A stretch of 64,000 nucleotides of DNA from Eledone cirrhosa. Taxonomy: Eukaryota. A model generated the notes under the pieces. The model had not been told where the DNA came from. It worked only from the letters and a program-made list of their open reading frames with translations, and made no database searches. The translations under genes and the position numbers were made by a program. Positions 5,317 through 61,995 of this stretch are shown piece after piece. Numbering within the stretch: position 1 is the stretch's first letter; every line of letters begins with the position of its first letter. The DNA lies in NCBI GenBank assembly GCA_964016885.1, contig OZ024740.1, forward strand, positions 65,162,001 through 65,226,000, given 5' to 3'.

Positions 5317-6576
5317 TAGATTCAGCGAGCATCGCATTTCGGCGGGTACGAAAGGTGAAACGAAACGAAAAAATCAGAGATGACACTGGCAAAGTGCTCA
5401 ATAGTTAAAAACCAGAGCTAAACAATGTGTTAAGAAGACATACAAAACTGAAAAAGTGGTCAAGAAAGCATTAACCAACTAAGCCAAAGCAAATCAAGCT
5501 AAATAGGTCAAAACAAAATAAATGATAAAAAATAAATGATAAACTAGAACTGGACCTTCGGAATTGCTGTTAAAATCCAATGCAGGGTTTCTATGACACT
5601 AAATCAAAATACTGTCTGCTTAAAAATATAAGCTTTGGGTATAATTATCAAACAAGGAATATCACGTTATCAACAGGTATTTTGATCCGTACCAAATATG
5701 TGAGTGACACAGAGGCAAGTTAAACCACGTGTGGAAATCACAATAGGAAATAACCCCAGATTTCGGCAAAAGAATTCACTAAGTGTATATCATGCAAAAA
5801 ATTGCATAAATAGCACAAATCGAATATTTATATATATATAGATAAATATACACGGGTGCGTATGATTGTGTATAGACGATTATATTAATAAAAGGAATTC
5901 CAACTTTGTCTGATTTATTCGTTTTATTTACAATCTTTTAAAATTTATAATGGTATTAGAATGAAATAGTATGGTAGAATATTAAATGTTAAGTGTTAAT
6001 TGAACAAGTACTTTCATGCTTTCGCAATCTTCTGGTTCATATTCTGTGGTGACAGTCAAGTTTGCAATTTTCAACTGTAATGAGATTGGTACATTTTGTG
6101 CCTTATATACAGTGAAAAGTGGCTACAGAATGCTAAATCTTGCAAACTGTATTTCGACCAATCGGTGTGTAGTTTCACTGGATTACTAAAGCTGATTGGT
6201 TTAGGCGTCACGATTGGTTGAGCATGTCTAACGCTACTATTTGACCCTATCCGAAGCATCAATTGTTTTGCTATTTTTAGAAATGATGAAAAAAGCATTT
6301 TCTAGTAATCATCACCATCAACATCACATTTATTATTATTATTGTTGTTGTTGTTGTTAGTGGTCGTAGTCATAGTCATAGTAGTATTAATACCCCATTT
6401 AGCTTGGGTTGGAATTTATCGTGTTATGGCGTATGTTGTGTTGGTGCGATTGTCCATTTTTAATGTTTTTTCTCAGTGTTCCAGAGTCTTTACCGTAATT
6501 TGCAGCATATTCGTCGAGAAATAATTGTTTCTGCTGCCATAACTTTCTTGATTTGCTTTCTTCTTTTGAGATATCT

Positions 6577-7414
6577 CTGAATTTTAAATTGTGCCATCCA
6601 CCTCATACAAATCTCAACATCCCATACTTCCTAGCCAGAAGAATTTGTACCATTGTTGAAGATTCGAATACCTGGAACAAACCCCTAACAGAACTAAGAG
6701 AATTTTTGCACAAACAAAATACCCATCTCTACTTATAGAAAATGGCATACAGCGGGCTATAAAAATACCTATACACCAACTTAGGACAACCAAGGAAGAA
6801 GAAACCAAGAAAAGGTCATACCATTTATAATGACAGACAACACATGTCACCAGAATATCTTCAACACTGCCAAATCAAACCTACCGATCATTGCTCAAAG
6901 TAATGAATTAAAAGGCTTAATCACAGATCGATCTTTGACTCTTAGTAAAAGGCAACCGAAAAATTTGAAGCAATTACTAACAAAAGATAAGTTTGAAATT
7001 AACAACAAAGACCAGTCATTCACTGTAACTAAATGCAATGATGGTCGATGTGGCACATGTCAATCCATACACACCGGTCATTATATGAAAACAAAAACTG
7101 GAATAATATTCCCAAATGCAAATATGAACTGCAAAAGCAGAAATCTAATTTACTGCATTAAATGCCCGAATTGTGAAGAACTATATGTCGGTCAAACTGG
7201 AAATGCACTATCGGAACGTGCACGGGTGCACCGACAGCAAATCAGAGACCCAAATGTCAGTCAGATATCTCTGTGTAACCATCTAGCAACATGTGCTCAG
7301 AGAATATTTATAATATTTCCATTCTACAAATTACACAGCCCAAGTGAAATCAAGAGAAAAATCAAAGAAAAGACTTTTATTGATAAATTCCAACCCAAGC
7401 TAAATGAACAATAA
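6577..7414 (+). pseudogene. PLE RT thumb, Cys-rich linker and GIY-YIG endonuclease (frameshifted)
   Basis: HPPHT..NIPY..ARRICTI; SKRQPKNLKQLLT; CNDGRCGTC; NLIYCIKCPNCEELYVGQTG..LSER..VHRQQIRD. Confidence 0.88.
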
Positions 7415-7767
7415 TAATGGGGTATTAATCTGACTATGACTATGACCACTAAAAACAACAACAATAATAATAATAAAAGTGATGTTCATGGTGATGATTA
7501 CTAGAAAATGCTATTTTCATCATTTCTAAAAATAGCAAATCAATTGATGCTTTGGATAGGGTCAAATAGTAGTCGTTAAACATGCTCAACCAACCGTGAC
7601 GCCTAAACCAATCAGCTTTAGTAATCCAGTGAAAATACACACTGATTGCTCGAAATACAGTTTGCAAGATTTAGCATTCTGGAGCCACATGTCTCTGTAT
7701 ATAAGATACAAAATGTACCCATCTCATTACAGTTGAACATTGCAAACTTGACTGTCACCACAGAATA

Positions 7768-7806
7768 TGAACCTGAAGATTGCGAAAGCATGAAAGTACT
7801 TGTTCA
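7768..7806 (+). ncRNA. Minimal type I hammerhead ribozyme motif
   Basis: TGAAC-CTGAAGA-T-TGC-GAAA-GCA-T-GAAA-GTAC-TT-GTTCA: 5-bp stem I, intact core, palindromic GTAC loop 3. The left-arm copy (6001-6040) has a mutated core CAGAAGA. Confidence 0.8.
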
Positions 7807-7940
7807 ATTAACACTTAACATTTAATATTCTACCATACTATTTCATTCTAATACCATTATACATTTTAAAGGATTGTAAATTATACGAGTAAATCAGACA
7901 AAGTTGGAATTCCTTTTATTAATATATATATATATATATA

Positions 7941-8147
7941 AAACGAAGGAAATGTGGTAAGGAACCAGGTGGACCATAACGCACCAGAGTACTCAATACT
8001 TAGGGTAGTAGAGTGGGTAATAGGAAAATGTTTAAGACCCCGACGGCAGAGCTCTAGCCGTATCGACATCTATTTCTGGACCTATTTCTGGTCCAGAGAT
8101 AGTCGTCAATACGGTTTGAGCTCTGACCTCAGGGTCTTGAACATATT

Positions 8148-9387: not shown

Positions 9388-9600
9388 ATAAGTATGTATA
9401 CGTACATACATATATGTATACAGACGTACAGTAGTATGTATATATATATATACATGCACACATATATATATATGTACGTATACTCTATACATATATATAT
9501 ACTGTACGTCTGTATACATATATGTATGTACGTATACATACTTATATTTAAGAAACAGCCGTACTAAGAGTGAGAAATGAAATTTCGTTTCATTTTTTCT
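9388..9600. repeat. Internally deleted fold-back copy of the 36.7-kb retrozyme-like family
   Basis: TAAGTATGTATACGTACATACATATATGT.TACAGACG arms in inverted orientation, plus tail CCGTACTAAGAGTGAGAAATGAA shared with 37467-37490. Confidence 0.75.
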
Positions 9601-16398: not shown

Positions 16399-17821
16399 TA
16401 TACGGGGTAACAAATAATTGTTATATGCAGTCCACTTAGGTGTAGTTCCGTTATGGTACTCCGGTTAGTGGATGATATCAACGCTTGGCTAAGTTTGAAT
16501 CAACAAGGCGTTTCCATAGTGATGCTGCGAGTATACTTTAATTCCTATGTTGTAAACACTTGGAGTAATAATAAATCAGGAAAGAAGAGTGACACGGTTT
16601 GCTATACGAAAAAGGTTTTTAATCTCATTGCTGACAATTGTTTCTCTGAACTGGTAGGTCTAGAGATCGCTATCCGCTTATTTTCACGTTACTCGATCGC
16701 CAATACAAAGTTATAACCAGTCAGTTCATCGGAGCTTGCGAGAATGAAGAGAATATACAGGCATGAAAAGAATATACAGGCTACTATATGTAGTAGTAAC
16801 GGCATTCAGTTAGAACAATAACAACAATATCAACAATGCTAGCAATAAATTATTTGAAATAATCACAACATCAATCTAGGTGGGAAGTATAGTATATCTA
16901 TGATTTTAGCTTGTAAAACTAGCTGACATGAGGCAGATGTATAGAATTGACATGTAAAAACTGTCGTAGGGTGTATTATATCAAGTGTAAAGATAAGCTG
17001 GTGTTTTTAAACAATGTAGGTCAGGTGGCCGTAATAGTCAGTTTTTATCTGACCGATGAAGTATTTATCACTGTAGTGGAATTTGTGTGGTCTATATTAG
17101 ATGAGAGCGCTGTCTATCTTTCTCATCCTCAATAACATACATGTATAAGACAACACTAACAAAGCTAAATAATGGGCAAGTTAATACAGAGGTTAAGGAG
17201 GCAATATATATATATATATATATACATATATATACACACACATATGCACACAAACATATATATATACACACACACATACACATACATACATACATACAAA
17301 GAGAAAACATGCTAACTATAATTATAGCAAGAAGAAGGTAAAGTTCTGTTGTAGTAGTATCTTTAAATGTTCTTGGATTTAGGATCAAGTGATGACAGCA
17401 ACTGAGAAGAGATAAGTTTATGGGTTGATGAGGTACTTACAGACATTAGTGTGGTATAAAACTAAGAAGGCTAGAATGTACTTAATGATTATATTTCTGT
17501 GGTGATTCGTGCAGAGTAGTGGGTATCCTAGTTGAAAGCTATGTTACGTCGGTTCGATTTACGGAGGTTTAAATTTTATGAATTTAGTGGCGATCCTGTG
17601 CCTGCAGAAGATAGATCTTTCTAACTTGTTAAGTAGCCTTTTTACATTTCTAAGGATATACAGTAGTTCTAGATCACATAGCCTACAGTGTGACATACCT
17701 GTACTGTAGGTTTTAGCAGCTGATAACCTCGACCAGTTGATACTGTAGCTAGTCTTGTTGTCCTTCAGTTCCCATATTTTTTTGGCGAGAGTTGTAGAAC
17801 CCATAAGTGCACGATTTTTCA

Positions 17822-19554
17822 TCGATAGGATAATCGCACAAATAAAGGATAAACTAGAAATCAATTTATGGGGTAATACTAACGAGGCGATTGAATGGTT
17901 CAATAAAATACAAAATAGGGAGACGTGTAACTTCATACAATTTGATATAGACGACTACTATGCATCCATATTCCCAGCCACCCTAAATAAAGCGCTTATA
18001 TTTGCCCAAAATAACTCAGATGTTACCCCTGAGGAAATTGAAATAATAATAACGGCTGGAAGGACTATCATAAAATTTGAAAATAGCTACTGGGTAAGAA
18101 TAGATAGGATAAACAGCTTCGATATAACAATGGGATCAAATGACTCTGCGCAAATCACAGACATCGTGGGGCTATTCATAGCACACAACCTACATAAGGA
18201 ATTCAGTAACCTCCAAGGAGGGGTTTATAGAGACCACACGCTCCTTATAGCTAAGAACTTAAACAACCAGAGCATGGAAAGATTAAGAAAAAACATTAGA
18301 ACATTCTTTAAAAAACTGTGCCTAAGTATTACCTACGAACTGAACCATAAGAAAGTAAACTTTCTAGATGTGAGTCTAAATCTAAATACGGGATTAATAG
18401 AACCTTTCCACAAAAATAATGAAAATCTGGCCTACATTAGTTATAACTCAAACCACCCCAAATCCATAATCAAATCCATAGCACGTAGTATATCCCTTCG
18501 AATATCCCGCTTATCCTCAAACCTAGAAATCTTTAACGAACATGCTAACTATTATAACGCAAAGATAAACTGCAGTATATAGCGAATAAAGACAACGTAA
18601 ACAATCCTTATAGCAACTATACCAACCGCTCACACAAAAATAGAGGTAACTGGACTAGACATAGGGTTAGGCATGTAGCACCTAGAGTGAACGGTCAAAA
18701 CACTAATAACGTAAACCCAAGAAACAATAGAAGAATCAGAGAAAGAAAATACCTATGGTTCAACCCAATCTTCAATTCCTCTGTAAAAACCAGACTGCCT
18801 TCTACATTCTTTAAACTAATAGATAAACACTTCCCTATTTCACATAGATATCATAAAATACTCAATAGAAATACTATAAAACTCTCATACTCTACGGCAG
18901 CAAATATAGAATCGCACATACGCAAGATCAACCACAGAAATATCTCTAGGGAATCAGCCCCACCTATGCGCAACATAGCACCAAATTATAAGCATAAACA
19001 CATCACAGTATCACAACCGCAAGCACATACAAGCGCGAATCAGCAAAACCCCAACGGGCATGAATCACAACCCACTTATAGCAGAGTATTAAACAGCAGT
19101 GTAGAAGCTGCACGAAATAACACCTCAAATTGTAACTGTCACCTACCGGATAGGTGCCTATTGGCGAATAGATGCCTCGATTCGAGCTTAGTGTACATGT
19201 GTACGGTCAACTCAGACAATTCCACCTGGCATTACATTGGATCCACCGCGGCTACTTTTAAAAAAAGATGGTATGTGCACAGGCACTCGATGAAAAATCG
19301 TGCACTTATGGGTTCTACAACTCTCGCCAAAAAAATATGGGAACTGAAGGACAACAAGACTAGCTACAGTATCAACTGGTCGAGGTTGTCGGCTGCTAAA
19401 ACCTACAGTACAGTATGTCCCACTGTGGGCTATGTGATCTAGAACTACTGTATATCTTTAGAAATGTAAAAAGGCTACTTAACAACAAGTTAGAAAGATC
19501 TATCTTCTGCAGGCACAGGATCGCCACTAAATTCATAAGATTTAAACCTCCGTG
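17822..19554 (+). pseudogene. Naiad-type RT (C-terminal part) plus GIY-YIG endonuclease, frameshifted
   Basis: FIQFDIDDYYASI, ITMGSNDSAQITD, VYRDH (YRDD degenerate), VNFLDV, SNHP, WFNP, CNC..DRC....C, YIGST..FKKR, LA..IW.LK, C..C..E, CRH. Confidence 0.9.
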
Positions 19555-19873
19555 AATCGAACCGACGTAACATAGCTTTCAACTAGGATACCCACTACTC
19601 TGTACGAATCACCACAGAAATATAATCATTAAGTACATTCTAGCCTTCTTAGTTCTATACCACACTAATGTCTGTAAGTACCTCATCAACCCATAAACTT
19701 ATCTCTTCTCAGCTGCTGTCATCACTTGATCCAAAATCCAAGAACATTTCAAAATACTACTACAACAGAACTTTACCTTCCTCTTGCTATAATTATAGTC
19801 AGCATGTTTTCTCTTTGTATGTATGTATGTATTTGTATGTGTGTGTGTGTATATATATATGTTTGTGTGCATA

Positions 19874-19904
<31 letters not shown>

Positions 19905-20372
19905 TGCCTCCTTAACCTCTCTATTAACTTGCCCATTATTTAGCTTTGTTAATGTTGTCTTATAAATGTATGTTATTGAGGATGAGAAAGATAGACAGCG
20001 CTCTCATCTAATACAGACCACACAAATTCCACTACAGTGATAAAAACTTCATCGGTTAGATAAAAACCGACTATTACGGTAACCTGACCTACATTGTTTA
20101 AAAACACCAGCTTATCTTTACACTTGGTATAATACACCCTACGACAGTTTTTACATGTCAATTCTATACATCTGCCTCATGTCAGCTAGTTTTACACGCT
20201 AAAATCATAGATATACTATACTTCCCACCTAGATTGATGTTGTGATTATTTCAAATAATTTATTGCTAACATTGTTGATGTTGTCGTTATTGTTCTAACT
20301 GAATGCCATTACTACTACATATAGTAGCCTGTATATTCTTTTCATGCCTGTATATTCTCTTCATCCTCGCAA

Positions 20373-20477
20373 GCTCCGATGAACTGACTGGTTATAACTT
20401 TGTATTGGAATCGAGTAACGTGAAAATAAGCGGATAGCGATCTCTAGACCTACCAGTTCAGAGAAACAATTGTCAGC
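20373..20477 (+). ncRNA. Hammerhead-like motif with CCGAUGA core and long stem II (inverted copy at 16630-16735)
   Basis: GCT-CCGATGA-A-CTGACTGGT...ACCAGTTCAG-A-GAAA-C-AATT-GTC-AGC. Confidence 0.6.
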
Positions 20478-20527
20478 AATGAGATTAAAAACCTTTTTCG
20501 CATAGTAAACCGTGTCACTCTTCTTTC

Positions 20528-21919
<1,392 letters not shown>

Positions 21920-24260: not shown

Positions 24261-24295
<35 letters not shown>

Positions 24296-24298
24296 CAT

Positions 24299-25961
24299 AT
24301 AACGAAACGAAATTAAATTTCGTTTCGTTTGTAACTCACTTTTGTATGACTGACGCTTAAACAATTAAGTTAAAAGTGTACATCCACATATGTATACTGA
24401 AATACTAGTATGCATATAAATACACACACGTATACAAATGTACATGTACCGAGTTTTTCACTGGACACTTTACTGTGAGTGTCTAGCTAGTCTGTATGTA
24501 ACCAAATAGACAAACCGGGTTTTAGAGTCATACGGGTTTTCAAGGAAACACCTTTCCTCTATTCTTCAGAGAGCCAGACAGGAATATTGGACTAGTTTCG
24601 ATGTTATTACATCTCATCAGCAATAAAATCCCATCTTCCGGCTTCTCTAGAGAATCGTAAAAGCATATATCGTTATATGCTTTTTCTATGAAAATTAGTA
24701 GTGGGCAGACTAATTTGCATAGAACGTGAGTCATTATACGCACCGGTTCAGCGGAAACGATAAAAACAAATAACGAAATGAAATTAAATTTCGTTTCGTT
24801 TGTAACTCACTTTTGTATGACTGACGCTTAAACAATTAAGTTAAAAGTGTACATCCACATATGTATACTGAAATACTAGTATGCATATAAATACACACAC
24901 GTATACATATGTACATGTACCGAGTTTTTCACTGGACACTTTACTGTGAGTGTCTAGCTAGTCTGTATGTAACCAAACAGACAAACCGGGTTTTAGAGTC
25001 ATAACGGGTTTTCAAGGAAACACCTTTCCTCTATTCTCCAGAGAGCCAGACAGGAATATTGGACTAGTTTCGATGTTATTATTTGTTTTTATCGTTTCCG
25101 CTGAACCGGTGCGTATAATGACTCACGTTCTATGCAAATTAGTCTGCCCACTACTAATTTTCATAGAAAAAGCATATAACGATATATGCTTTTACGATTC
25201 TCTAGAGAAGCCGGAAGATGGGTTTTTATTGCTGATGAGATGTAATAACATCGAAACTAGTCCAATATTCCTGTCTGGCTCTCTGGAGAATAGAGGAATG
25301 GTGTTTCCTTGAAAACCCGTATGACTCTAAAACCCGGTTTGTCTGTTTGGTTACATACAGACTAGCTAGACACTCACAGTAAAGTGTCCAGTGAAAAACT
25401 CGGTACATGTACATATGTATACGTGTGTGTATTTATATGCATACTAGTATTTCAGTATACATATGTGGATGTACACTTTTAACTTAATTGTTTAAGCGTC
25501 AGTCATACAAAAGTGAGTTACAAACGAAACGAAATTTAATTTCGTTTCGTTATTTGTTTTTATCGTTTCCGCTGAACCGGTGCGTATAATGACTCACGTT
25601 CTATGCAAATTAGTCTGCCCACTACTAACTTTCATAGAAAAAGCATATAACGATATATGCTTTTACGATTCTCTAGAGAAGCCGGAAGATGGGTTTTCAT
25701 TGCTGATGAGATGTAATAACATCGAAACTAGTCCAATATTCCTGTCTGGCTCTCTGGAGAATAGAGGAAAGGTGTTTCCTTGAAAACCCGTATGACTCTA
25801 AAACCCGGTTTGTCTGTTTGGTTACATACAGATTAGCTAGACACTCACAGTAAAGTGTCCAGTGAAAAACTCGGTACATGTACATATGCATACGTGTGTG
25901 TATTTATATGCATACTAGTATTTCAGTATACATATGTGGATGTACACTTTTAACTTAATTG
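24299..25961. mobile_element. Retrozyme-like non-autonomous element: 471-nt HHR-containing unit, ~1.65 copies on minus (24299-25080) and ~1.9 copies on plus (25078-25961)
   Basis: Near-identical units; CTGATGA cores at 25232 and 25703 (471 apart) and at 24614-24620 on minus; no credible ORF; (TA)n flanks. Confidence 0.85.
25227..25267 (+). ncRNA. Canonical minimal type I hammerhead ribozyme (copies at 25698-25738 plus and 24585-24625 minus)
   Basis: TATTG-CTGATGA-GATGT-AATA-ACATC-GAAA-CTAG-TC-CAATA; GUC cleavage triplet; palindromic CTAG loop 3. Confidence 0.9.
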
Positions 25962-25992
25962 TATATATATATATATATATACATATATTGGT

Positions 25993-36660: not shown

Positions 36661-36719
<59 letters not shown>

Positions 36720-36724
<5 letters not shown>

Positions 36725-37509
36725 TATGTATACGTACATACATATATGTGTACAGACGCACAGTAGTGTGTGTATATATACATACATGCACCCATATATA
36801 TATGTTCGTATGGGTTTACCGAACATTTATTATAAGGTTCAGTTTGTTTGTAAACAACCAGCCCGAATTACGCCGTACAGTGGTCGGCAACTATCGTCGC
36901 CCTTTTGTTCAACACAGGCACAGGAACGATGTACTAGTTTCAAGCTTATTAGCTATCCTCAGCATCGTATACCTTTCTGTCAGATGATTGAACGTCTGAA
37001 AGTATATACTTTCCTCATGCATATTAACGACTAAGCAGCCTAATTTGCATATCGAGTGAGTTAGTCGGCCGGGCATACCGAAAAGGTTTTCGGTATGCCC
37101 GGCCGACTAACTCACTCGCTATGCAAATTAGGCTGCTTAGTCGTTAATATGCATGAGGAAAGTATATACTTTCAGACGTTCAATCATCTGACAGAAAGGT
37201 ATACGATGGTGAGGATAGCTAATAAGCTTGAAACTAGTACATCGTTCCTGTGCCTGTGTTGAACAAAAGGGCGACGATAGTTGCCGACCACTGTACGGCG
37301 TAATTCGAGCTGTTTGTCTACAAACAAACTGAACCATATAATAAATGTTCGGTAAACCCATACGTACATATATATATATATGTGCATGTATGTATGTATA
37401 TACATACTACTGTGCGTCTGTACACATATATGTATGTATGTATACATACTTATATTTAGGTATCACCCGTACTAAGAGTGAGAAATGAACTTTTGTTTCA
37501 TTCTTTTCC

Positions 37510-37510
<1 letters not shown>
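36720..37510. mobile_element. Retrozyme-like element (sister subfamily) as a ~730-bp near-perfect palindrome centred at 37085/37086
   Basis: Arms 36720-37084 and 37087-37454 are reverse complements; HHR in each arm; shares CTATGCAAATTAG.CTGC and tail motifs with the 471-nt unit. Confidence 0.85.
36926..36968 (-). ncRNA. Minimal type I hammerhead ribozyme (plus-arm copy 37203-37245 has C3->G)
   Basis: ACGATG-CTGAGGA-T-AGCT-AATA-AGCT-T-GAAA-CTAG-TA-CATCGT. Confidence 0.85.
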
Positions 37511-37575
<65 letters not shown>

Positions 37576-49559: not shown

Positions 49560-50100
49560 ATGGAAAACATATTATTTGCTTATATTTGCCATGAATTGTT
49601 TTTTCTTTTATTATTCCCTGTTGCTTTGCAAATAAATCCAAGCATTTGTAAAGGGGAAGGAATATGGTTTTTTTTAAAATTTGGTTCTGTTCCTTCCAGC
49701 AGATGCTGCAATATTATTACTTTAAAATATGTGTCGGCTTTCTGCATCACGGATTTATAGCATGCCTATTGTCAATTTTTCGTATCATGACACTCCGGTT
49801 TGTCCTGTGTATTTTTATATATATCCACAGCATATTTTCACATCGATTTTGTTTTCCGAATTGTAGGTGAAACTTTCTTTTACCCTAGAGGTTTAATCAT
49901 CGATAAATCTGAATTCTGGTCCTTCAATTGTAAATAAGCTGCTACGACAGTTTGTTCTTCCGCATGTTTTAGCAGCGCTGTTGGTGATTTGTTTATGTGT
50001 TTTTTTTACTCCAGTAAGTATCTTTCTAGTGTTTTGGGTTGTCTTTTACATTTGATGATATGTGGTCTTTCAAGAAACGTTTTTTATATAAATAAGATGG
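49560..50100 (-). pseudogene. Decayed Neptune-like PLE linker/GIY-YIG fragment
   Basis: IIKCKRQPKTL..YL; KTCGRTNC; YTGQTG; IRD; PLYK-like end; same layout as 6830-7414. Confidence 0.6.
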
Positions 50101-50140
<40 letters not shown>

Positions 50141-50142
<2 letters not shown>

Positions 50143-51181
50143 CCCCGAATACAATAGTTCCATTAGTACACATTTACCAGTACTCTTCTTTAAAATAATT
50201 AAAAGACATTTTCCCACATCACACAAATACCACAAAATCCTAAACCCTACCACTATAAGACTGTCATACTCTACAGCGTTAAACCTTGAACAACACATAA
50301 AAAAGATCAATACTAGAAGGTTAAACGAAAACACTAAGAACTTAAGTACAAAGAACACAAAAAAAACAGTAGACAATACACTACAGAACATAAATAAACC
50401 ACATCTAAGTTCGTCCGCAATACTACTCCAGAGAAAACCCAACGTACACAACTGTAACTGCACCTATCCTGACAACTGCCCCCTCGGCAATAACTGCCTG
50501 GAAAAAAATATTATTTATAAGTGTACCATTAAATCCGGGGGCAACGAGTGGTATTACGTGGGATCAACGGCAACATCGTTTAAATCTCGATTGTATAGGC
50601 ATTCTTACTCAATAAAACACCAGAGCCAAAGAAATGTAACAACTTTAGCAGAAAAAGCTTGGACGCTCAGGGATAGCGATCAAAAGTTTACCCTAAAATG
50701 GGAGAAATAAGCTAAAACCCAAAGCTTTTCCAGGAGCCAAAATTTCTGCAAATTGTGTAATCTTGAGATTTATTACATAATCACACACAAGAAGAAACTG
50801 CTGAATAACAGAATTGAACGAACATTATTCTGCCGTCACAGAACTAAAACCATTTTTTCCCACTACAAGCCGAATATTACATAAAAGAGGGTCATCCCCC
50901 AACTATATAAACCTTAATCTAGTTAGAAAAATATAAAAACAATCTCTTCTCAACATATATTAATAACCTTAAATTACCACACTAATAATGGAAAGATATG
51001 CTGATGAGAATAGGTGCAAATATGCGATAATGAATGTGTCTAAAAACGTCCATAAGTATGTATATATATGTGAAAATGTATATAAATAAGTAAATATATA
51101 TATATGTTTGATGTGTATAGTTAGATGTAAGTGTATTCATGTATTAAAGTGCATATATATTTATGTATATGTGTATGTATA

Positions 51182-52045: not shown

Positions 52046-52210
52046 CTAAGTACAAAATTATGATAAATGAATTAAATGAATTTAATCTAAATCGAAATCA
52101 TGGGTGTCATGACATAATGCATGCGCCATATATCCTGGGAATTTAAGCTCAAAGATAAATAAATCTGAGCATATTATAATAACAGAGATTGATTAACATA
52201 TAAAAATACA

Positions 52211-52552
52211 GTATACTAGGGAAAGGATCAGGGGTGTATAACACTCCACTTATCCAGCAGGCAGTATGAGGTTAGCTCAATGTCTGAGGACAGAGCCGTA
52301 ATATAATAAATAAATAACAAAGAACGCTTATAGCATATGCATATCTTTACTTGCTAACATTGTTTCATCCGCACTATAAGTGGGACTCATCAGAGCATAA
52401 AGGTTAATTACATACCATACAAGCAATAACAAATCCAAGACATTGAAGAATGAAAGGTAATAATAGACGATAGAGGATAAGAATAAAAATAAAAATAAAA
52501 GTAAAAATAAAAATAAAAATAAAAATAAAAATAAAAATAAAAATAATATATT
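52211..52552 (-). mobile_element. HHR-bearing insertion with apparent ~15-bp target-site duplication; HHR at 52352-52397
   Basis: ACATATAAAAA(T/C)ACA at 52196 and 52553; TGCT-CTGATGA-GTCC-CAC-TTATA-GTG-C-GGAT-GAAA-C-AAT-GTT-AGCA. Confidence 0.7.
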
Positions 52553-53273
52553 ACATATAAAAACACATGAATAATCACAGGAGATCATTTTTGCTTGCGT
52601 GTAACCGCGCATAGCTAGTTTAGGCAATATTTACCTTTAAGTGTGATTAACCTTCCTTGTATATATCCCATTAAAGAAATATATTTAACCAATTAATCAG
52701 ATGGTAAGTCAGGGAAAGTGGATATTATTGGATTGTCAACAAGGAAAGTGATAATTTCCAGCTATTCGTGCTTACAGAGCGAGATCAAATCTTCAACTAT
52801 TCGTTACCACGTGTTGCGTCCACACAAGATAGCGGTTTCGTTTCAGTGGCGTGAAAAGGTATTCGACAACTAGAAATAGCAGTCAAATTCTTTTCAACAG
52901 AAATTGCTCAACAATTAAGGAGCCGTATATATATATCTAAGTCCAAAATTAAGATAAATGAATTAAATGAATTTAATCTAAATCGAAATCATGGGTGTCA
53001 TGACATTATGCATGCGCCATATATCCTGGGAATTTAAGCTCAAAGATAAATAAATCTGAGCATATTATAATAACTAGAGATTGATTAACATATAAAAATA
53101 CATGAATAATCACAGGAGATAATTTTTGCTTGCGTGTAACCGCACATAGCTAGTTTAGGCAATATTTACCTTTAAGTGTGATTAACCTTCCTTGTATATA
53201 TCCCATTAAAGAAATATATTTCACCAATTAATCAGATGGTAAGTCACGGAAAGTGGATATTATTGACTTCCCA

Positions 53274-53465
53274 ATGGCAGGTGGATTGGCAGTATCGGTA
53301 GAGGGTCGGACGTCATGCTTTCCATCATAGTTACGTCCCTTTACGATCTGAGTTCAAATCCAGCCGAGGTTAACTTTGCCTTTCATCCTTACGGGGTCGA
53401 TAAAATAAAGTACCAGTAATGCACTGGGTAATTTCTGGCCTTGTGCTAATAGTAGAAACAATTAT
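53274..53465 (+). mobile_element. Full-length tRNA-derived SINE with target-site duplication
   Basis: TGGCAGTATCGGTAGAGG A-box, GAGTTCAAATCC B-box, core and tail; flanked by ATTATTGACTTCCCA on both sides. Confidence 0.9.
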
Positions 53466-54320
53466 TGACTTCCCATCTCATTAATTGGTGAAAGATATTT
53501 CTTTAATGGGATATATACAACGAAGGTTAATCACACTTAAAGGTAAATATTGCCTAAACTAGCTATGCGCGGTTACACGCAATCAAAAATTATCTCCTGT
53601 GGTTATTCATGTATTTTTATATGTTAATCACTCACTAGTTATTATAATATGCTCAGATTTATTTATCTTTGAGCTTAAATTCCCAGGATATATGGCGCAT
53701 GCATTATGTCATGACACCCATGATTTCGATTTAGATTAAATTCATTTAATTCATTTATCTTAATTTTGGACTTAGATATATATATATACGGCTCCTTAAT
53801 TGTTGAGCTATTTCTGTTGAAAAGAATTTGATGTTATTTCTAGTTGTCGAATACCTTTTCACGCCACTGAAACGAAACCGCTATCTTGTGTTGACGCAAC
53901 ACGTGGTAACGGATAGTTGAAGATTTGATCTCGCTCTGTAAGCACAAATAGTTGGAAATTATCACTTTCCTTGTTGACAATCCAATAATATCCACTTTCC
54001 CTGACTTACCATCTGATTAATTGTTGAAATATATTTCTTTAATGGGATATATACAAGGAAGGTTAATCACACTTAAAGGGAAATATTGCCTAAACTAGCT
54101 ATGCGCGATTACACGCAAGTAAAAATGATCTCCTGTGATTATTCATGTATTTTTATATGTTAATCAATCTCTAGTTATTATATATATATATATATATATT
54201 AGAATTGGAGCTCTGAAATAGCAATATATATATGGATGTATATATAATGTATTTTGCAATACACTTTATGCTTAATTAAAAAAAGCATAAAGTGTATTGC
54301 AAAATACATTATATATACAT

Positions 54321-55069: not shown

Positions 55070-58034
55070 ACCACATTTGTAAACACTGTACCCACAACCT
55101 CTGACCATAAAAAACTGAAAAATTTCTGGGGAACTAAATCAGAACACCCTGCCATCCCCTGCACACAATCATATACTGGAATCAAGGTACAAATTGTTGT
55201 CCTTGAATGCACGTAGTCTATGCAATAAGATTCATCTTTTTGACTCCTACGTCAAAAGTATTAACTCTGACTTCATTACAGTCACGGAAACTTGGGCACA
55301 TCCCTTACTCTGTGATGGGGTTTTCAGCATAACTGGCTAAAACCTGTTTCGTAAAGACCGCATTAATCGTGGTGGTGGTGGTGTAATGGTCTACGTTCGG
55401 TCAAATTTGTCGGCAATTCCTTGTATTGATTTGAACAAATCACAGCAGAAATTTTTTTTTCTACGATATATGTATGACCATGTCGTTTACCGTCCCCCTA
55501 ATTACCATCAGGATACTCAACTTTGTGATATCCTCAGAGCTGCTGCCAGGAAAACAGCCACTTATGTTTTTATTGCAGGAGACTTCAATCACCCTGAGAT
55601 TGACTGGGAAACCTTTCGTTGGCCGCCAAGTGCAAATTACTTCCTTGAGATAGTGCTGGACTTGAATTGGTCCCAAGTAGTCACCTCCCCAACAAGAGGT
55701 GACAACACTTGGGACCTATCCTCACCACTACTCCTGAAACGGTCATTGGTGTTACTGCTGAGGAACCTTTAGGTCACTCTGATCATGCTATGATCATTGC
55801 CAATCTATCCCTCATGGGCAGTAACAAGAACCACAACCATTCTCCAAACTGCTCACTTTGACTGGAATAAAGCCGACTCGAACTGTTACTGCACCGAACT
55901 GCAACGTCCAAACTGGCTTGAGTTCTACGACTCTGGAGATGTCAAAATTGTACATCCTGAGCTCAATATGGACAGCATGTGCAGCATCGGGGCCACATAA
56001 GCGGAAACAACATCCCAAAAGTGCAATTTGGAAGACTGCAGCAGTCCGTCTTGCTAGAAAAGAATGTCGCAATGCTGAACGTGAGTACAAACTGCACAAA
56101 TCAGACATCAATAGGAAGAGGCGAAATAAATCGTCCAACCACCTCAAACAGGTGACAAAAATGGCAGTGCCTCAATTCGAGCAGCGCATAGCAACCAGCC
56201 CTGACAGTAAGGTGTTCTGGAAGTATGTTCACTCAAATCAGAGGCCTCACTCTCCAGTTTGTCTTCTTCACAATTCCCACACAAGGTTACTGACGACCCC
56301 AAGGAATGCACAGAGCTCATTGCTGAATGCTATGCAAGCATTTTCACTATTGAATACTAGAGTGTACCGTCTCCACCACCTATGACACAGGACTCTATTA
56401 CAACCTAGGAATTTACACATGCAATGCTGCGACGTCACCTAAAAAATATACGCGACCATGCCTCTCCTGGTCCTGATGGTGTTACGTACCTGCTTCTTAA
56501 ACGTGGTGGGGACTTACTTCTGCACCAGCTATCACGCTTCTTTCAATTCTGTCTGAACAACGGTGCTACTCCAGAACAGTGGAAAACTGCCAGTGTCATT
56601 CCTCCGTTCAAAAAGGTTGACCGCACATCACCTGCGACCTATCGTCCAGGCAGTCTTACTAGTTGCATTGCCAAACTGATGGAATCCTGTGTCAGAGAAA
56701 CACTTTGGAATTTCTGGAACTCTCAGTCTTATCTGGCCCTCGCAATTTGGATTTATCCCCAACTCCAGCTGCTGTGATCAACTTATAGAGTTTCTTGAAG
56801 ACATCACCCGGATCACTGATCGCGGTTCATGGGTGGATGTTGTTTACCTTGACTTTGCGAAAGCTTTAAATTCTGGGCCACACAAAAGTCCTTCATTCTC
56901 AGTCGAAGAGAAGTAGTCACGGTTCTGGGACAGCATTCCTCACCATATGTGATGTCATCTGGTGTACCACAGAGATCTGTTCTTGGCCCCCTTTTGTTTG
57001 TGGCATATATTAATGACATAGATGCCAACTTAAAGAATGCCACAGTACTAAAGTACGCAGATGACATCAAGCTGTACCTTGAGATAAAAAGGACAGATCC
57101 TGAACACTATAGATCTTGCTTGCAGTCTGACCTGGACACAATGCAACAATGGATCTCGGACTGGCAACTCAAGCTAGCTGTGGAGAAGTACACCACCATG
57201 CATTTTGGGAGTAAAGACCCAGCATCCACATACTCTCGCCACAGCACTAATATCAAGAAGTCTTCTTGTGAACGTGACCTGGGCATTACGGTCAGCAGCA
57301 ATTTGCGTTGGACGAAGTACGTCTCTAAAATTGTCAAGAGGGCCGAGGGTGTCTTAGCATCACTCAGCAAGACCTTTGTCAGCCGCTCTCCAGCTATCTA
57401 TTTAAGGCTGTACATGGCTATGGTGCGGCCACACTTAGAACTTGATTCACCAGTCTGGAACCCCTATCTTGCTCAGAACATTCACCGCCTGGAAACTGTT
57501 CAGAGACGTGCAACCAAGTGAATACCCTCCACCAGGCATCTACCATACTCTGAACGCCTTGTTTCCCTGGCCATGGATACATTGAAGTAACGACGCCTGG
57601 TAACTGACGTGGTAAACACCCACAAAATTGTTAACCATCTTGCCAACAACAACCCTGAGTACCTTTTTGATTTCCATGTGTCTAATACACGTGGGCATGC
57701 CCACAAAGTCAGAAAACAGCACAGTTGCCATGACTTTCGGAAGCAATTTTTCACGCTCAGAGTTGCTGAAGCATGGAACAAACTACCTGCATCAGTTGTT
57801 AGCTGTCGAGCCACTGCATCCTTTAAAACCTCCATGCTTCCCGAGATACGCCAACACTACACCTAATGTTCCCCCTCCATACACATATACACATGTATAT
57901 CATGACTCATACACTCTTCACTTATCTGACATTTGTATATTATTCTATGTAATATACATGCACATTTGACGAGTTGTAGTGCACCTGAGCACTTTACACA
58001 ATAATTTCATTATTATTATTATTATTATTATTAT
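55070..58034 (+). mobile_element. CR1-clade LINE ORF2 (APE endonuclease plus RT), decayed, with (ATT)n tail
   Basis: LNARSL.NK, VTETW, RKDR..RGGGGVMVYV, VYRPP, AGDFNHP.IDW, SDH, SPGPDG, SQFGF, YLDFAKA, SGVPQ.SVLGPLLF..YIND, KYADD, VRPHLE..SPVWNPY; several frameshifts and deletions. Confidence 0.92.
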
Positions 58035-61000
58035 TTGCATTTATCTTGCTTTATGTTTATACGAGTTATCACCAAGTCACAACCAGTGACCTCAAGAGAC
58101 AACAAGGTCCGCCATGTTCAAGAAAGAACACACATATTCACACATGCATCCTTAGTGTTTAGACTTGTGATGTACTTATATTGACAGGATCTTCCTTAGT
58201 ATATGGGCAGTTCCCATTAGTACTATCTTTTGTATTTCTCCTATACGCGGGTTTCCTGGGATTTGCGATAAGTAGTCGTTAGACCCCTTAGGTATCATTC
58301 CCAGAGCGCCTACAACCACTGGTATTGTTTTAGTTCTCAATTTCCACATTTTTCCAATTTCTATCTCCAGGTACTTATACTTGCTCAATTTTTCAAATGT
58401 TTTTTATAGATACATTCTTGTCTATTGGAACAGACATATCAATTAGCAGGCATACCCTCCTTTGAAAGTCCTTCAATATTATATCAGGTCTATTTGCATC
58501 TATTTTTCGGTCTGTTTGGATGCTAAAGTTCCACAAGATTGAGATGTGATCTTTTTCAAGTATGGGAGGTGGTTGATGCTCCCACCAATTCTTTTGATGG
58601 GGCAGGTCAAAATGCTTACACATTATCCAATGTATGTATTGTGCAGCTCTGTCATGCCTGTTTAGGTATTCGGTTGGAGCTATAGGACTGCACATTGAAA
58701 TTATATGGTCAATGGTCTCTGGTTGTTTTTTGCATACACGGCATAATGGGCTGCACCCATTTTTTATTATGTTGGCTTGGTAATTTTTTGTTGGCAGACA
58801 CTGATCTTGTGCCGATATAATCAGTCCTTCAGTCTCCGATTTTAGTCCAGAGGATGCCAACCACTGATGGGTTAAAATTTTGTCAACATCAGGATTGTTA
58901 GCTCGCTCTGGGTATTTTCCATACAGAGGCTTTTCTTGCCATTTCTTAGCCAGTTTCTGTAGCAGTTCTTTCTTTGCAGTTACTTTTAACTGCTTTGCTT
59001 TTTCTGTGTTTTCCATTTCAGCAGTAAATGGGACTTCTGAAATTTGTAGTCCATTACTGTATCTTTGTGCATCTTTTGTAATGGAATATGATCTTTTGGT
59101 GCTTTCGTGTTTCAAAACGAGTTTGATCATCCAATCATGTGATTCCCTTAGATATGTGGATAATCCAATTGTTGCAGTTTTCAACGCAATGTCTAACTGG
59201 ATTAACCCACGTCCTCCTTCTTTCCTAGGGAGATATATTCTATCTATGTCTGCCTTAGGGTGATGCATTCTGTGCATGGTTAAGAATTTTCGGATTTTTG
59301 TATCGAGCCTACGGATCTCTGTGCTTGACCAGTTGATGACATTGTAACTGTAGGTTACTACTGGTATGGCAAGCGTGTTTATGGCATCGATCCTATTCCT
59401 TGCATTCAATTCCGTTCTTAAGATTGCACTGACTCTGCGGTAACATTCCTTCCTTATCCTTTCCCTCATTGTCGAGTGCTTGATTCCGTCTCCTTCACAA
59501 ACACCTAGATATTTGTAAGTTTGTTCTTGATCAAGCTCCTTTATCACGTTCCCCCGATCAAGATTAATGTCTGAACTCTTCAGCAGCTTTCCTCTGGTGA
59601 ACGTTGCTTTGGCGCATTTATCCAGTCCAAACTCCATTTTAATGTCATCACTGAACTGCTTCACAGTGGATAATAGCCCTTGCAATTGTTCATCATTTTT
59701 TGCAAATAGTTTCAGGTCATCCATGTAGAACAGGTGATTAATGGTTTTGTCATAGACTCTATATCCATGTTTTGTTTCATTGAGCATTTTACTTAATGGT
59801 ATAAGTGCGATGCAGAATAAAAGCGGTGATAAAGAGTCACCCTGAAAAATTCCACAATTAATGTTAACTTCTCCAGCTTCCAGTGATTTTGTTTCACTAT
59901 TCAAAAGGAGTGTCGTTCTCCATGTCCTCATACTGAATGACAAAAAAACCTCCTGACAACGGGGGATATTTTGAAAATCTCTAAACATTTTTCAATCCAA
60001 CTGTGTGGCAAACTATCAAATGCTTTTTTATAATCTATCCAAGCAATCGATAGATTTTTGTGTCTATTATGACAATCTTCCAGTATCATTTTGTTAACCA
60101 GAAGCTGATCCTTACAGCCATATGAGCCTCGTTTACACCCTTTCTGCTCAATGGGAAATAGGTCATTTGTTATCAGGTAGTCATATGTGTATTCAGTTAG
60201 GACTGATGTTAAAATTTTATACATTGTGGTCAAGCAGGTTATCGGTCTGTAATTTTTGGGATTGTTTGTCTCATCATTCTTCGGTAGCAGGAATGTAATG
60301 CCGTTAACTAGCCATGATGGTATCTTTTCTGGCTCCTTAACTATTTCATTGTAAAGTTGGGCTAATAGCTCATGAGACTCTGTGAAGGCATTTATCCAAA
60401 AGTTTTGTATTTTGTCTTTTCCTGGGGATTTCCATTTGCTGGTTTTTCTTAGAGCCAAGCGCAGCTGTTCAACTGTTATATTTTCCCATGTTTGTTCTTC
60501 AAGGTGAGCTGTTTCTTTCATTTGTCTGTCTATCCATGGGGCATGTATGTTATGAACTTTTTCTTCGGCCCAGATCTTTTCCCAGAATTCTTGCACTTCC
60601 TCCTTGGGTGGTATTGATTTAGCAGTTATTGTTGACTTACCAATTTTTCTGTAGAAGTTTCTTTGGTTGTTTTTGAACATATTATTGTCCTTATAGAATC
60701 TAGATCGTTTTTCAAAGCGCCTTATACGAGCAGCTTTGGCCGACACTTTTTGCTTGATTGTTTCTATCAGCATGTCTATGTCACATGTTGATCTTATACT
60801 GTCCTTTTTTTTCAATTTTCTAAGTTTAGTTTGTTTTACATGTTCACCTACTTTATAGTTTGTTAAAATTTCTATGTCAGATCGGAGAAGGTTTATTTGG
60901 CGATTGATGTTATCTTGCCAAGTAGATTTCTTGTGGGAATTCCTTTGTTTTTTCATCTTCACTCCACATAAGTGAGTGGTGACTTTAGCCGATGCATAAT

Positions 61001-61995
61001 AGAGATGATTTAAGTCAGTAATGTTTAGTTTGTTTGTGATGATAATGTTTTTGAGAATTATGTTAGTCTTGTGTATTATCTTTTGGTTCTGTTTGGAGTT
61101 CTGGATCTTAGGGAGGGTGTCTCGTTCCCCCATGTCAGATTCTTTCATTTTCATCCATTCGATCATAATTTCATCCTTCAAGTTGGCAAGTTCATTCTCA
61201 TTCATTTCTTTATCATTTACGATCTCATTATTTTCATTTGGAGTTTCATCCTGAGCATGCACTCCCTCCACTTTTTCGCTCCTTTCTTTAATTTGTTCTG
61301 TTGCCAGTGATTCCGCCCCAACTCTGGGATTCGAAGTGTTACAGTTTACCTCGTTTTCACTGACACATGCTTCATTTTCCCTTCGCTGACTTTGTGCTAC
61401 TAGCTTGATCTGATCAATTTCTATATCAGTTAGTAACTTTTTTCTTACAATATTTCTTCGTATATTGGCTAGTTTGTTACTGTCAATATAGCCTCTGTTT
61501 TCGGGATGTTTCTTTTTCCAGTTGATATATGTTTGCTCTGTATTCGATGTATTTGATGGGTAGTACATGGCAGTGTAGAAAGCCTCAAGGACTTCTTTAT
61601 TATCTTCCCTTGACCATTTTTCTCTCTTTTTCTTTGGATTTCTTGGTGGTGAGCATGGAGGGCCAACAGTAGGAGTATTCCGGTTATGGGAGGTCTCCAG
61701 CTCCGAAGTGATGGGAAGGTTTGAACCATTAGCTGATTTTTCGACCCCAGTCTGGTTCCTCTCTGAGGGACGCGGCCCTTTTTTACCCGGGTGACGGCCG
61801 ATCCGGTATGAGATTTCATCATTAGACATCTACTTTATTTTGTCGCGTTTTATCCTTATCCGCCAAGGGGTAATCATTTCGTGTTACCACTTCTAGAACG
61901 AGTGTCAACCAAGACTAGAGGGGTCGTTCTCCCCTAGAGACATGGCTATTCCCCGCCGGCCGCCATCCCGGTATTTCTTGGTCACGGGGTTTTCT
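58035..61995 (-). mobile_element. Near full-length R4/Dong-clade RLE non-LTR retrotransposon
   Basis: Single ORF 61829->58176 in three pieces; 3' end runs into (TAA)n; ~165-nt structured 5' UTR. Confidence 0.9.
58176..61829 (-). pseudogene. RT plus CCHC zinc knuckle plus restriction-like endonuclease polyprotein, two frameshifts (~59945, ~58393)
   Basis: Myb-like KW...DN.E...AFY; KSPG.D; NYRPITCL; EQKGC; WIDYKKAFDS.PH; GIFQGDSLSPLLF; YMDDLK; YKYLG; CRVC....ETIDHI...C; RHD; RPDI; KY..L; frameshifts lie at homopolymer runs. Confidence 0.9.

Follow-up and report, generated by a model that had tools for sequence, protein, structure and literature searches.

Non-LTR retrozymes of metazoans are repeats that carry a type I hammerhead ribozyme, lack open reading frames (ORFs), form tandems of a few hundred bases, are low in GC and reach thousands of copies, as described in the available text of PMC7229834 and bioRxiv 10.64898/2026.07.22.740005. 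In the accessible descriptions, their tandem repeats measure about 150–450 bp, their circular fold is strongly self-paired, and their mobilisation has been proposed to depend on Penelope-like elements, which the available text of PMC7229834 regards as only a strong candidate for this role. The 431-nt repeat of Eledone cirrhosa analysed in this study is alike in these respects: its period lies within that range and the circular fold of the unit is predicted to be strongly self-paired (z −6.9). It differs in its head-to-head arms and (TA)n targeting, neither of which is described for retrozymes in the available text of PMC7229834, and in that no homologous pLTR was found, whereas 24 of 57 Xenopus retrozyme families have one according to the accessible part of bioRxiv 10.64898/2026.07.22.740005. 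A candidate U6-type promoter further sets the 431-nt family apart from non-LTR retrozymes.

According to the available text of PMC8557442, Penelope-like elements leave inverted 5'-truncated copies, have one-sided tails and are biased towards (TA)n; the same text lists the origin of the tandem and inverted structure and the microsatellite bias as unsolved. A purified Penelope-like protein cuts and extends both strands and starts at two sites within the RNA, one on either side of the tail; initiation proceeds without homology to the cut DNA, and ribozyme cleavage is not needed in vitro (PMC11167929, accessible sections). The 431-nt repeat resembles these elements, as far as the accessible sources describe them, in its partial tandems, its inverted 5'-truncated copy, its tail at one end, its microsatellite bias, its hammerhead and its two internal start sites. 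It differs in having no ORF, a canonical rather than a minimal hammerhead and a tail of 52–57 nt, compared with 30–40 nt in the descriptions accessible. It also shows no sequence homology to the autonomous Penelope-like family with which it was compared.

In L1 twin priming the second target end primes an inverted segment, as we propose for the 431-nt repeat; here, by contrast, priming at the second end usually starts from the same pair of 3' sites, which results in overlapping mirror arms. Newt satellite 2 and a Schistosoma satellite (as cited in PMC2220036, available text) are likewise hammerhead repeats with a small-RNA-type promoter of their own inside the unit. The newt promoter is of the snRNA type for Pol II, whereas the putative elements here match the pattern of host U6, U6atac and RNase MRP and not that of U1/U2 (PMC2220036, for the newt promoter and in its accessible part). 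Cassandra, Helenus and Ajax (TRIMp3) are also short non-autonomous retroelements in which a Pol III promoter is restored through a repeated structure; the accessible text of PMC10886601 gives them LTRs, tRNA- or 5S-derived internal promoters and short target duplications, whereas the 431-nt repeat has a ribozyme, a candidate promoter of the gene-external type and no LTR.

Results

Structure of the palindrome

The window is a 64,000-nt stretch of the E. cirrhosa genome, which is microsatellite-rich and measures 3.0 Gb; local GC around the palindrome is 33–35%. Two mirror-image arms, 36715–37084 and 37087–37458, align at 95.7% over 372 nt around a 2-nt spacer, GG (37085–37086), which confirms the inverted repeat reported in the first-pass annotation. 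Positions within the unit are given here as q coordinates, that is, the window position minus 37086 in the right arm. The left arm (36715–37084, minus strand, q1–372) passes into (TA)n at its 3' end, at the first of the two common end sites, and has no tail. The right arm (37087–37510, plus strand, q1–424) ends at the second common end site, and the 52 nt between the two sites (37459–37510, plus strand) form a tail with a hairpin and a T run. The tail (AGTGAG, hairpin, T-run) had been described as kept, which holds for the right arm but not for the left. Both outer ends of the palindrome run into a (TA)n microsatellite recognised from the sequence and by TRF, with the left half of the target at 36661–36720 and the right half at 37510–37573.

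Family copies have CG at the place of the spacer, and with these bases the centre was probably once a perfect palindrome, AAAA-CG-TTTT. The exact centre is unique in the genome. Short-read contigs from another sample cover both flanks at >99% and break at the microsatellites, and none of the independent reads or contigs runs across the centre; raw short reads from another sample with the same species label do contain strand-switching joints of the 431-nt family at other places. The interval 9388–9600, which had been taken for a deleted copy, is instead a small head-to-head pair of two 3' fragments of the 431-nt family (about q274–368 inverted and q306–422 forward) without a ribozyme.

The 431-nt family and its hammerhead

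Tandem copies of the repeat elsewhere range from dimers to several units, and their period, which the first-pass annotation had suggested using to define the monomer, is about 431 nt. The 31-nt ribozyme core has 4,002 exact matches genome-wide, a DNA search with the repeat gave 4,629 candidates, and the sister-ribozyme pattern gave 10,922 matches. The 431-nt and 471-nt units are collinear from end to end, with z 14.8 against dinucleotide shuffles and 14.5 against window shuffles; with both the ribozyme and the AT-rich block left out, three parts of the unit, each scored by itself, reach z 3.5–6.5. The doubt whether the homology to the 471-nt unit is significant is thereby settled in its favour, and the description of the palindrome as part of an ORF-less sister family stands, the longest stop-free stretch being only 130 codons, beginning in a TA run, and no protein-coding frame being present. 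No LTR, primer binding site or polypurine tract is apparent when the unit is read, and no Penelope-like frame is attached to the ends of the family at the loci screened. With its type I hammerhead, its ORF-less tandem units and its low GC, the 431-nt repeat appears to fit the non-LTR retrozymes. We found no description of the family in the literature searched, which lacks most subscription papers, Repbase and Dfam, where the family may be filed.

In the window, the 471-nt family occupies 24289–25965, where its tandem units are arranged head to head and each outer 3' end lies in (TA)n. An array on contig 1 (5738326–5752444; L147–L166 and L217) comprises about 31 units of the 471 type with a 466-nt period and an inverted last unit, a head-to-head arrangement at array scale. 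Among multi-unit arrays, L136 and L185 have 5 and 8 private changes, respectively, that are common to their units, unlike most tandem pairs, which suggests local concerted evolution or later expansion.

Each arm has a hammerhead pattern consisting of stem I ACGATG/CATCGT, a stem II loop AATA, GAAA, a two-pair stem III, a palindromic loop and the cut triplet GUA. In the left arm (36926–36968, minus strand) the core CUGAGGA...GAAA...GUA is intact, with a U-U at the base of stem II, a palindromic loop 3 and a predicted cut after 36932. The right-arm hammerhead (37203–37245, plus strand) has the core GUGAGGA owing to a C3G change at 37209, a change reported to abolish cleavage (PMC11167929, accessible part), and is predicted to be inactive. 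Neither arm was matched in an Rfam search at E<=1, and the 471-nt unit reached 28.5 bits with Hammerhead_HH9, under the 52-bit cut-off; miRNA matches from the same search were discarded as microsatellite noise. Since the Rfam models were not reached, the assignment as a ribozyme rests on motif, fold and covariation.

The comparison with the 471-nt ribozyme made in the first-pass annotation is accurate for stem I (ACGATG/CATCGT for TATTG/CAATA), loop 2 (AATA), loop 3 (CTAG) and the downstream TTCCTGT. For stem II, the stems AGCT/AGCT and GATGT/ACATC are as described, but in register the basal pair is U-U for G-C and is not compensatory. This basal pair is G-C, U-U, C-G or C-A depending on the subfamily, and a U-U at this place is known from axolotl HHR_Amex2 (PMC7229834, available text). 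When 14 rows drawn from the two families are aligned, both partners have changed in 7 of the 13 ribozyme pairs, and 93.4% of the cells are paired, a level reached in 0 of 500 shuffles (a pair-counting measure was reached in 54 of 500); these rows represent few lineages, hence few independent events, and lie below R-scape grade. As far as the sequences can tell, the covariation is real, though ordinary for a diversified hammerhead family, any of which shows such covariation according to the accessible text of PMC4209133. It had been taken to indicate selection for cleavage in a diversified ORF-less family. The covarying stems bear this out in part; however, as the right arm carries C3G, selection for cleavage would act on the source copies and not on the locus at 36715–37510. 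This locus has no tandem unit and, together with the C3G change, this makes it likely a dead end.

A candidate U6-type promoter

Upstream of the ribozyme, the sequence ATGCAAATTAG and a TATA stretch, elements of the kinds named octamer and TATA, are kept in both the 431-nt and the 471-nt families. As likely promoter elements, with a function assigned by resemblance, they lie at 37002–37050 on the minus strand in the left arm (ATGCAAATTAG at 37050–37040, TATA stretch at 37008–37002) and at 37121–37169 on the plus strand in the right arm (ATGCAAATTAG at 37121–37131, TATA stretch at 37163–37169). Three distinct U6 promoters of the genome have ATGC(A/T)AAT(T/G)AG at −76 to −78 and TATA at −30, while the U1 and U2 genes have TCAGT at −57 in place of this motif. 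A matrix built from these three U6 promoters finds the motif at −77 in the held-out U6atac (best of eight loci) and RNase MRP genes, with 12.6 bits each, and finds none at RNase P or at six U1/U2 loci (at most 4.3 bits). The two repeat families score 15.5 and 17.7 bits, compared with an average of 5 and a maximum of 16.8 bits in 300 shuffles. The upstream region of the RNase P gene (L285) has no U6-type block and has TCAGT as the U1/U2 genes do, hinting at a U1/U2-type promoter there. A U1/U2-type proximal element at q377 of the repeat (TCAG...AGTGAG) was considered and rejected, scoring 6.7 and 2.8 bits, under the shuffle 95% level of 8.3.

The motif and TATA columns vary by 1.5% and 1.2%, respectively, compared with 5.8% for other non-CpG columns, and minor letters above 5% occur in 0 of 18 columns in the motif and TATA stretch and in 42 of 189 elsewhere; an RNA hairpin that contains the TATA stretch could also explain why the latter is conserved. 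The distance from motif to TATA is 42 in the 431-nt family and 43 in the 471-nt family (motif to core, 88 and 100), which does not match the 46–48 of five host genes; such spacing is tightly kept in insects (PMC1761439, accessible text). Because of this difference, we say that the families seem to resemble the type 3 (U6-like) Pol III promoter and do not assign them as members. The predicted transcription start is at q107–112, just before stem I, and four consecutive T first occur at q418. From these sequence features, a U6-type promoter in the 431-nt family is quite conceivable, and we place it a little short of an even call. No U6-type promoter in a retrozyme was found in the literature searched, most subscription papers being outside it.

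Insertion layout across loci

We next give the layout at 84 loci taken from the first 100 core matches on contig 1, a sample biased towards copies with an intact core, from which the two arms of the window, the reference locus L007 and overlapping or duplicate loci (L039, L044, L045, L061, L191) were left out. An inverted arm adjoins the 5' end at 42 of the 84 loci (45 with laxer alignment), and 39 have none. Forward 3' ends fall at q355–374 in 38 loci and at q420–431 in 34, at least 12 of 14 alternating TA letters follow the 3' end in 54, and, of the 45 inverted arms, 32 share these two end sites with the forward arms. The head-to-head form is thus the ordinary insertion layout of the 431-nt family, found at about half of the sampled loci. 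In the window the pair at 9388–9600 is also head-to-head, and the 471-nt locus also faces (TA)n on both sides.

Where neither arm is a full unit (16 loci), the arms are non-nested in 12, each having >15 nt that are absent from the other, and therefore neither arm is a fold-back copy of the other. Snap-back priming, which the first-pass annotation had suggested from the spacerless palindrome, does not hold as a general cause given these 12 of 16 informative loci and the 32 of 45 inverted arms at common 3' sites. It may account for a minority of loci whose second arm is short: a search with two anchors found 30 other near-symmetric loci, in about 10 of which the second arm is 25–40 nt long and ends off the common sites. 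Perfect palindromes centre on short self-complementary words, namely TCGA (3 loci), GTTAAC (2), CATATG (1) and TATATA (1). A preferred 5' stop at q1 was rejected, as 5' ends are spread over the whole unit, so that the symmetric centre does not in itself mark a start site. An apparent pile-up of inner ends at q225–238 stems largely from BLAST breaks at GTTT indels. At L185, L192, L197 and one match on C9 (L200), an inner junction recurs near q18/q29, each time through one particular 3-nt word, which marks a microhomology hot spot. A MITE or other DNA transposon was rejected, given that the inversion is present in only about half of the loci, the inner junctions vary and 39 of 84 loci have no inversion. 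Judged from these sequences, priming from both target ends seems to fit the layout better than snap-back, and we infer two priming events per insertion.

Penelope-like elements in the same genome

The window contains Penelope-like remnants with inverted arms. Of the several families represented in it, one was examined genome-wide. This family has 29,692 candidates, among them intact 775-aa frames with reverse transcriptase (RT) and GIY-YIG matches, the RT match falling a little short of the Pfam threshold; their linker, CX4CxxC, resembles one named for Neptune in the accessible part of PMC8557442. At 30 loci of this family, the 3' ends occupy two sites in (TA)n, and an inverted 5' arm that ends at those sites is present in 6 of 10 hand-picked intact copies. 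A truncated autonomous element at 5866–7941, used for comparison only, has a GIY-YIG frame at 6785–7414, an inverted 5' arm and the same end signature. The 431-nt repeat shows the signature of a non-autonomous Penelope-like element, namely an inverted 5' copy, partial tandems, a one-sided tail and a microsatellite target, and no homology was detected between it and this abundant family (30 loci) or two remnants in the window.

Other elements were noted in the window. A Penelope-like remnant at 16504–20532, with an RT frame (17749–18582), an endonuclease-like frame (18558–19442) and a CxCx5C-like linker, has long inverted arms and a right end that runs into (TA)n, and gave no Pfam match; near 20370–20480 it has an apparent hammerhead with an extended stem II. 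A related truncated frame follows a TA run at 50096–51050, with a degenerate CUGAUGA motif near 51000. At 52050–54182 lies an ORF-less element with tandem and inverted segments between TA runs, possibly another non-autonomous family of the same type. The window also has remnants of two LINE-type reverse transcriptases, at 58393–61829 and 55341–57521 (RVT_1 matches), which are unrelated to the palindrome.

Differences between the arms

Compared with 41 other copies, the two arms have 10 derived changes in common, all within q52–249, along with 8 substitutions private to the right arm, 5 private to the left and an indel. When the comparison is limited to the five nearest relatives and AT-rich parts are masked, 261 sites are left, of which 7 show shared changes and 3 differ between the arms. 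Two multi-change patterns are restricted to these two arms genome-wide, and therefore no source copy is present in the assembly. The inner parts of the arms differ at 2 of 218 positions, compared with 5.24% in old long-spacer pairs (p 0.0007, with the boundary between inner and outer parts set after seeing the data), and the outer parts at a typical 8 of 114; the absence of shared changes from q250–372 has a chance of 0.018 if they were uniform.

The arms of two other perfect old palindromes, the only two measurable, differ at 3 of 234 positions (p 0.003). Pairs of the old subfamily with spacers of 9–40 nt show no homogenisation (53 of 1,068, p 0.76), so that within this subfamily a short-spacer effect is seen only at zero-spacer loci. 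Pooled short-spacer loci differ by 2.85% compared with 5.19%, values that are confounded by young subfamilies and search anchors, and show no gradient of arm difference with distance. L097 was dropped from these comparisons as an alignment overlap. L114, a candidate second homogenised palindrome with 20 shared and 2 different changes, belongs to another subfamily and with its nearest relatives has 1 shared change. Our best reading of these sequences, reasonably probable on three loci, is that arm-to-arm copying took place later and is limited to spacerless palindromes.

Discussion

In this study, we examined a palindrome that is a decayed non-LTR retrozyme copy with a Penelope-type insertion signature and is itself of little importance. 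We think it likely that it represents one retrozyme insertion, in which a Penelope-like enzyme copied both arms from both (TA)n ends and the inner halves were later homogenised. Tandem units would be transcribed through, likely from the putative U6-type promoter just upstream of the ribozyme, and cleavage by two hammerheads in succession would release a monomer, which may circularise. As a simple linear transcript would lose an upstream promoter, a tandem or circular RNA template would restore it. An autonomous Penelope-like RT-endonuclease would then cut both strands of (TA)n, and each 3' target end would start reverse transcription at one of two internal sites, both ends being alike since (TA)n is self-complementary. 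Joining of the two cDNAs would take place where each is truncated, in many cases at a short self-complementary word, which here is CG, and the resulting spacerless palindrome may later form a hairpin or cruciform, or undergo fold-back repair, by which mutations within about 250 nt of the centre would be copied between the arms. The purified protein initiates without homology to the cut DNA and, in vitro, needs no ribozyme cleavage (PMC11167929, accessible text), and AU microhomology and circles may therefore not be required.

Snap-back at integration offers another account of this locus, in which a cDNA ending at q1 folded back to prime synthesis of the second arm, and an old, diverged source copy supplied the changes common to both arms. 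The nesting of the left arm in the right one, the recurrence of perfect palindromes at short self-complementary words, the near-identical arms of two of these and the short second arms off the common end sites at about 10 of 30 near-symmetric loci would all be in line with it. However, the assembly holds no source copy with the shared changes, these are missing from q250–372, and the left arm, as would one primed independently, has its 3' end at one of the common sites in (TA)n; moreover, a zero-loop hairpin would be unable to prime, CG giving only 2 nt, and most informative loci are non-nested. We therefore consider snap-back unlikely here.

A single old copy could also have been mirrored long after insertion, by replication fold-back with re-entry at the TA run, which would account for the zero spacer and the shared private changes in one event. 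Yet copying of a whole arm would leave a uniform difference, whereas the outer parts differ as in ordinary two-arm insertions and the inner parts little, and inverted arms at half of the loci need no late event, which makes such a duplication quite improbable. That the centre is unique and spanned by no independent contig or read could, finally, point to an assembly or chimeric-read artefact. Between the arms, however, there are 13 substitutions and an indel, and their ends lie at different sites. Joints at which the family switches strand are present in raw short reads of another sample, and the layout recurs at half of the loci and in other elements of the window; we regard an artefact as very improbable indeed.

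Two features make the family of interest: the evidence for priming from two ends seen across its loci, and its candidate promoter of the U6 type. An ORF-less repeat with the same insertion signature as an autonomous element of the same genome bears on the question of who mobilises retrozymes, and arms that are not nested suggest that each insertion involved two priming events, as the activity on both strands in the accessible part of PMC11167929 would permit. The U6-type promoter, if true, would give a reason for tandem or circular templates. Tentatively, and as a possibility we hold with less than even conviction, the repeat may thus represent a retrozyme lineage with its own U6-type, gene-external Pol III promoter, kept via ribozyme-cut tandem or circular read-through, that borrows a Penelope-like enzyme priming from the two ends of a TA microsatellite. 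If this is true, the short copies, in their thousands, would document the way in which tandem and inverted insertions of the Penelope type arise, and the spacerless ones among them would record arm-to-arm conversion.
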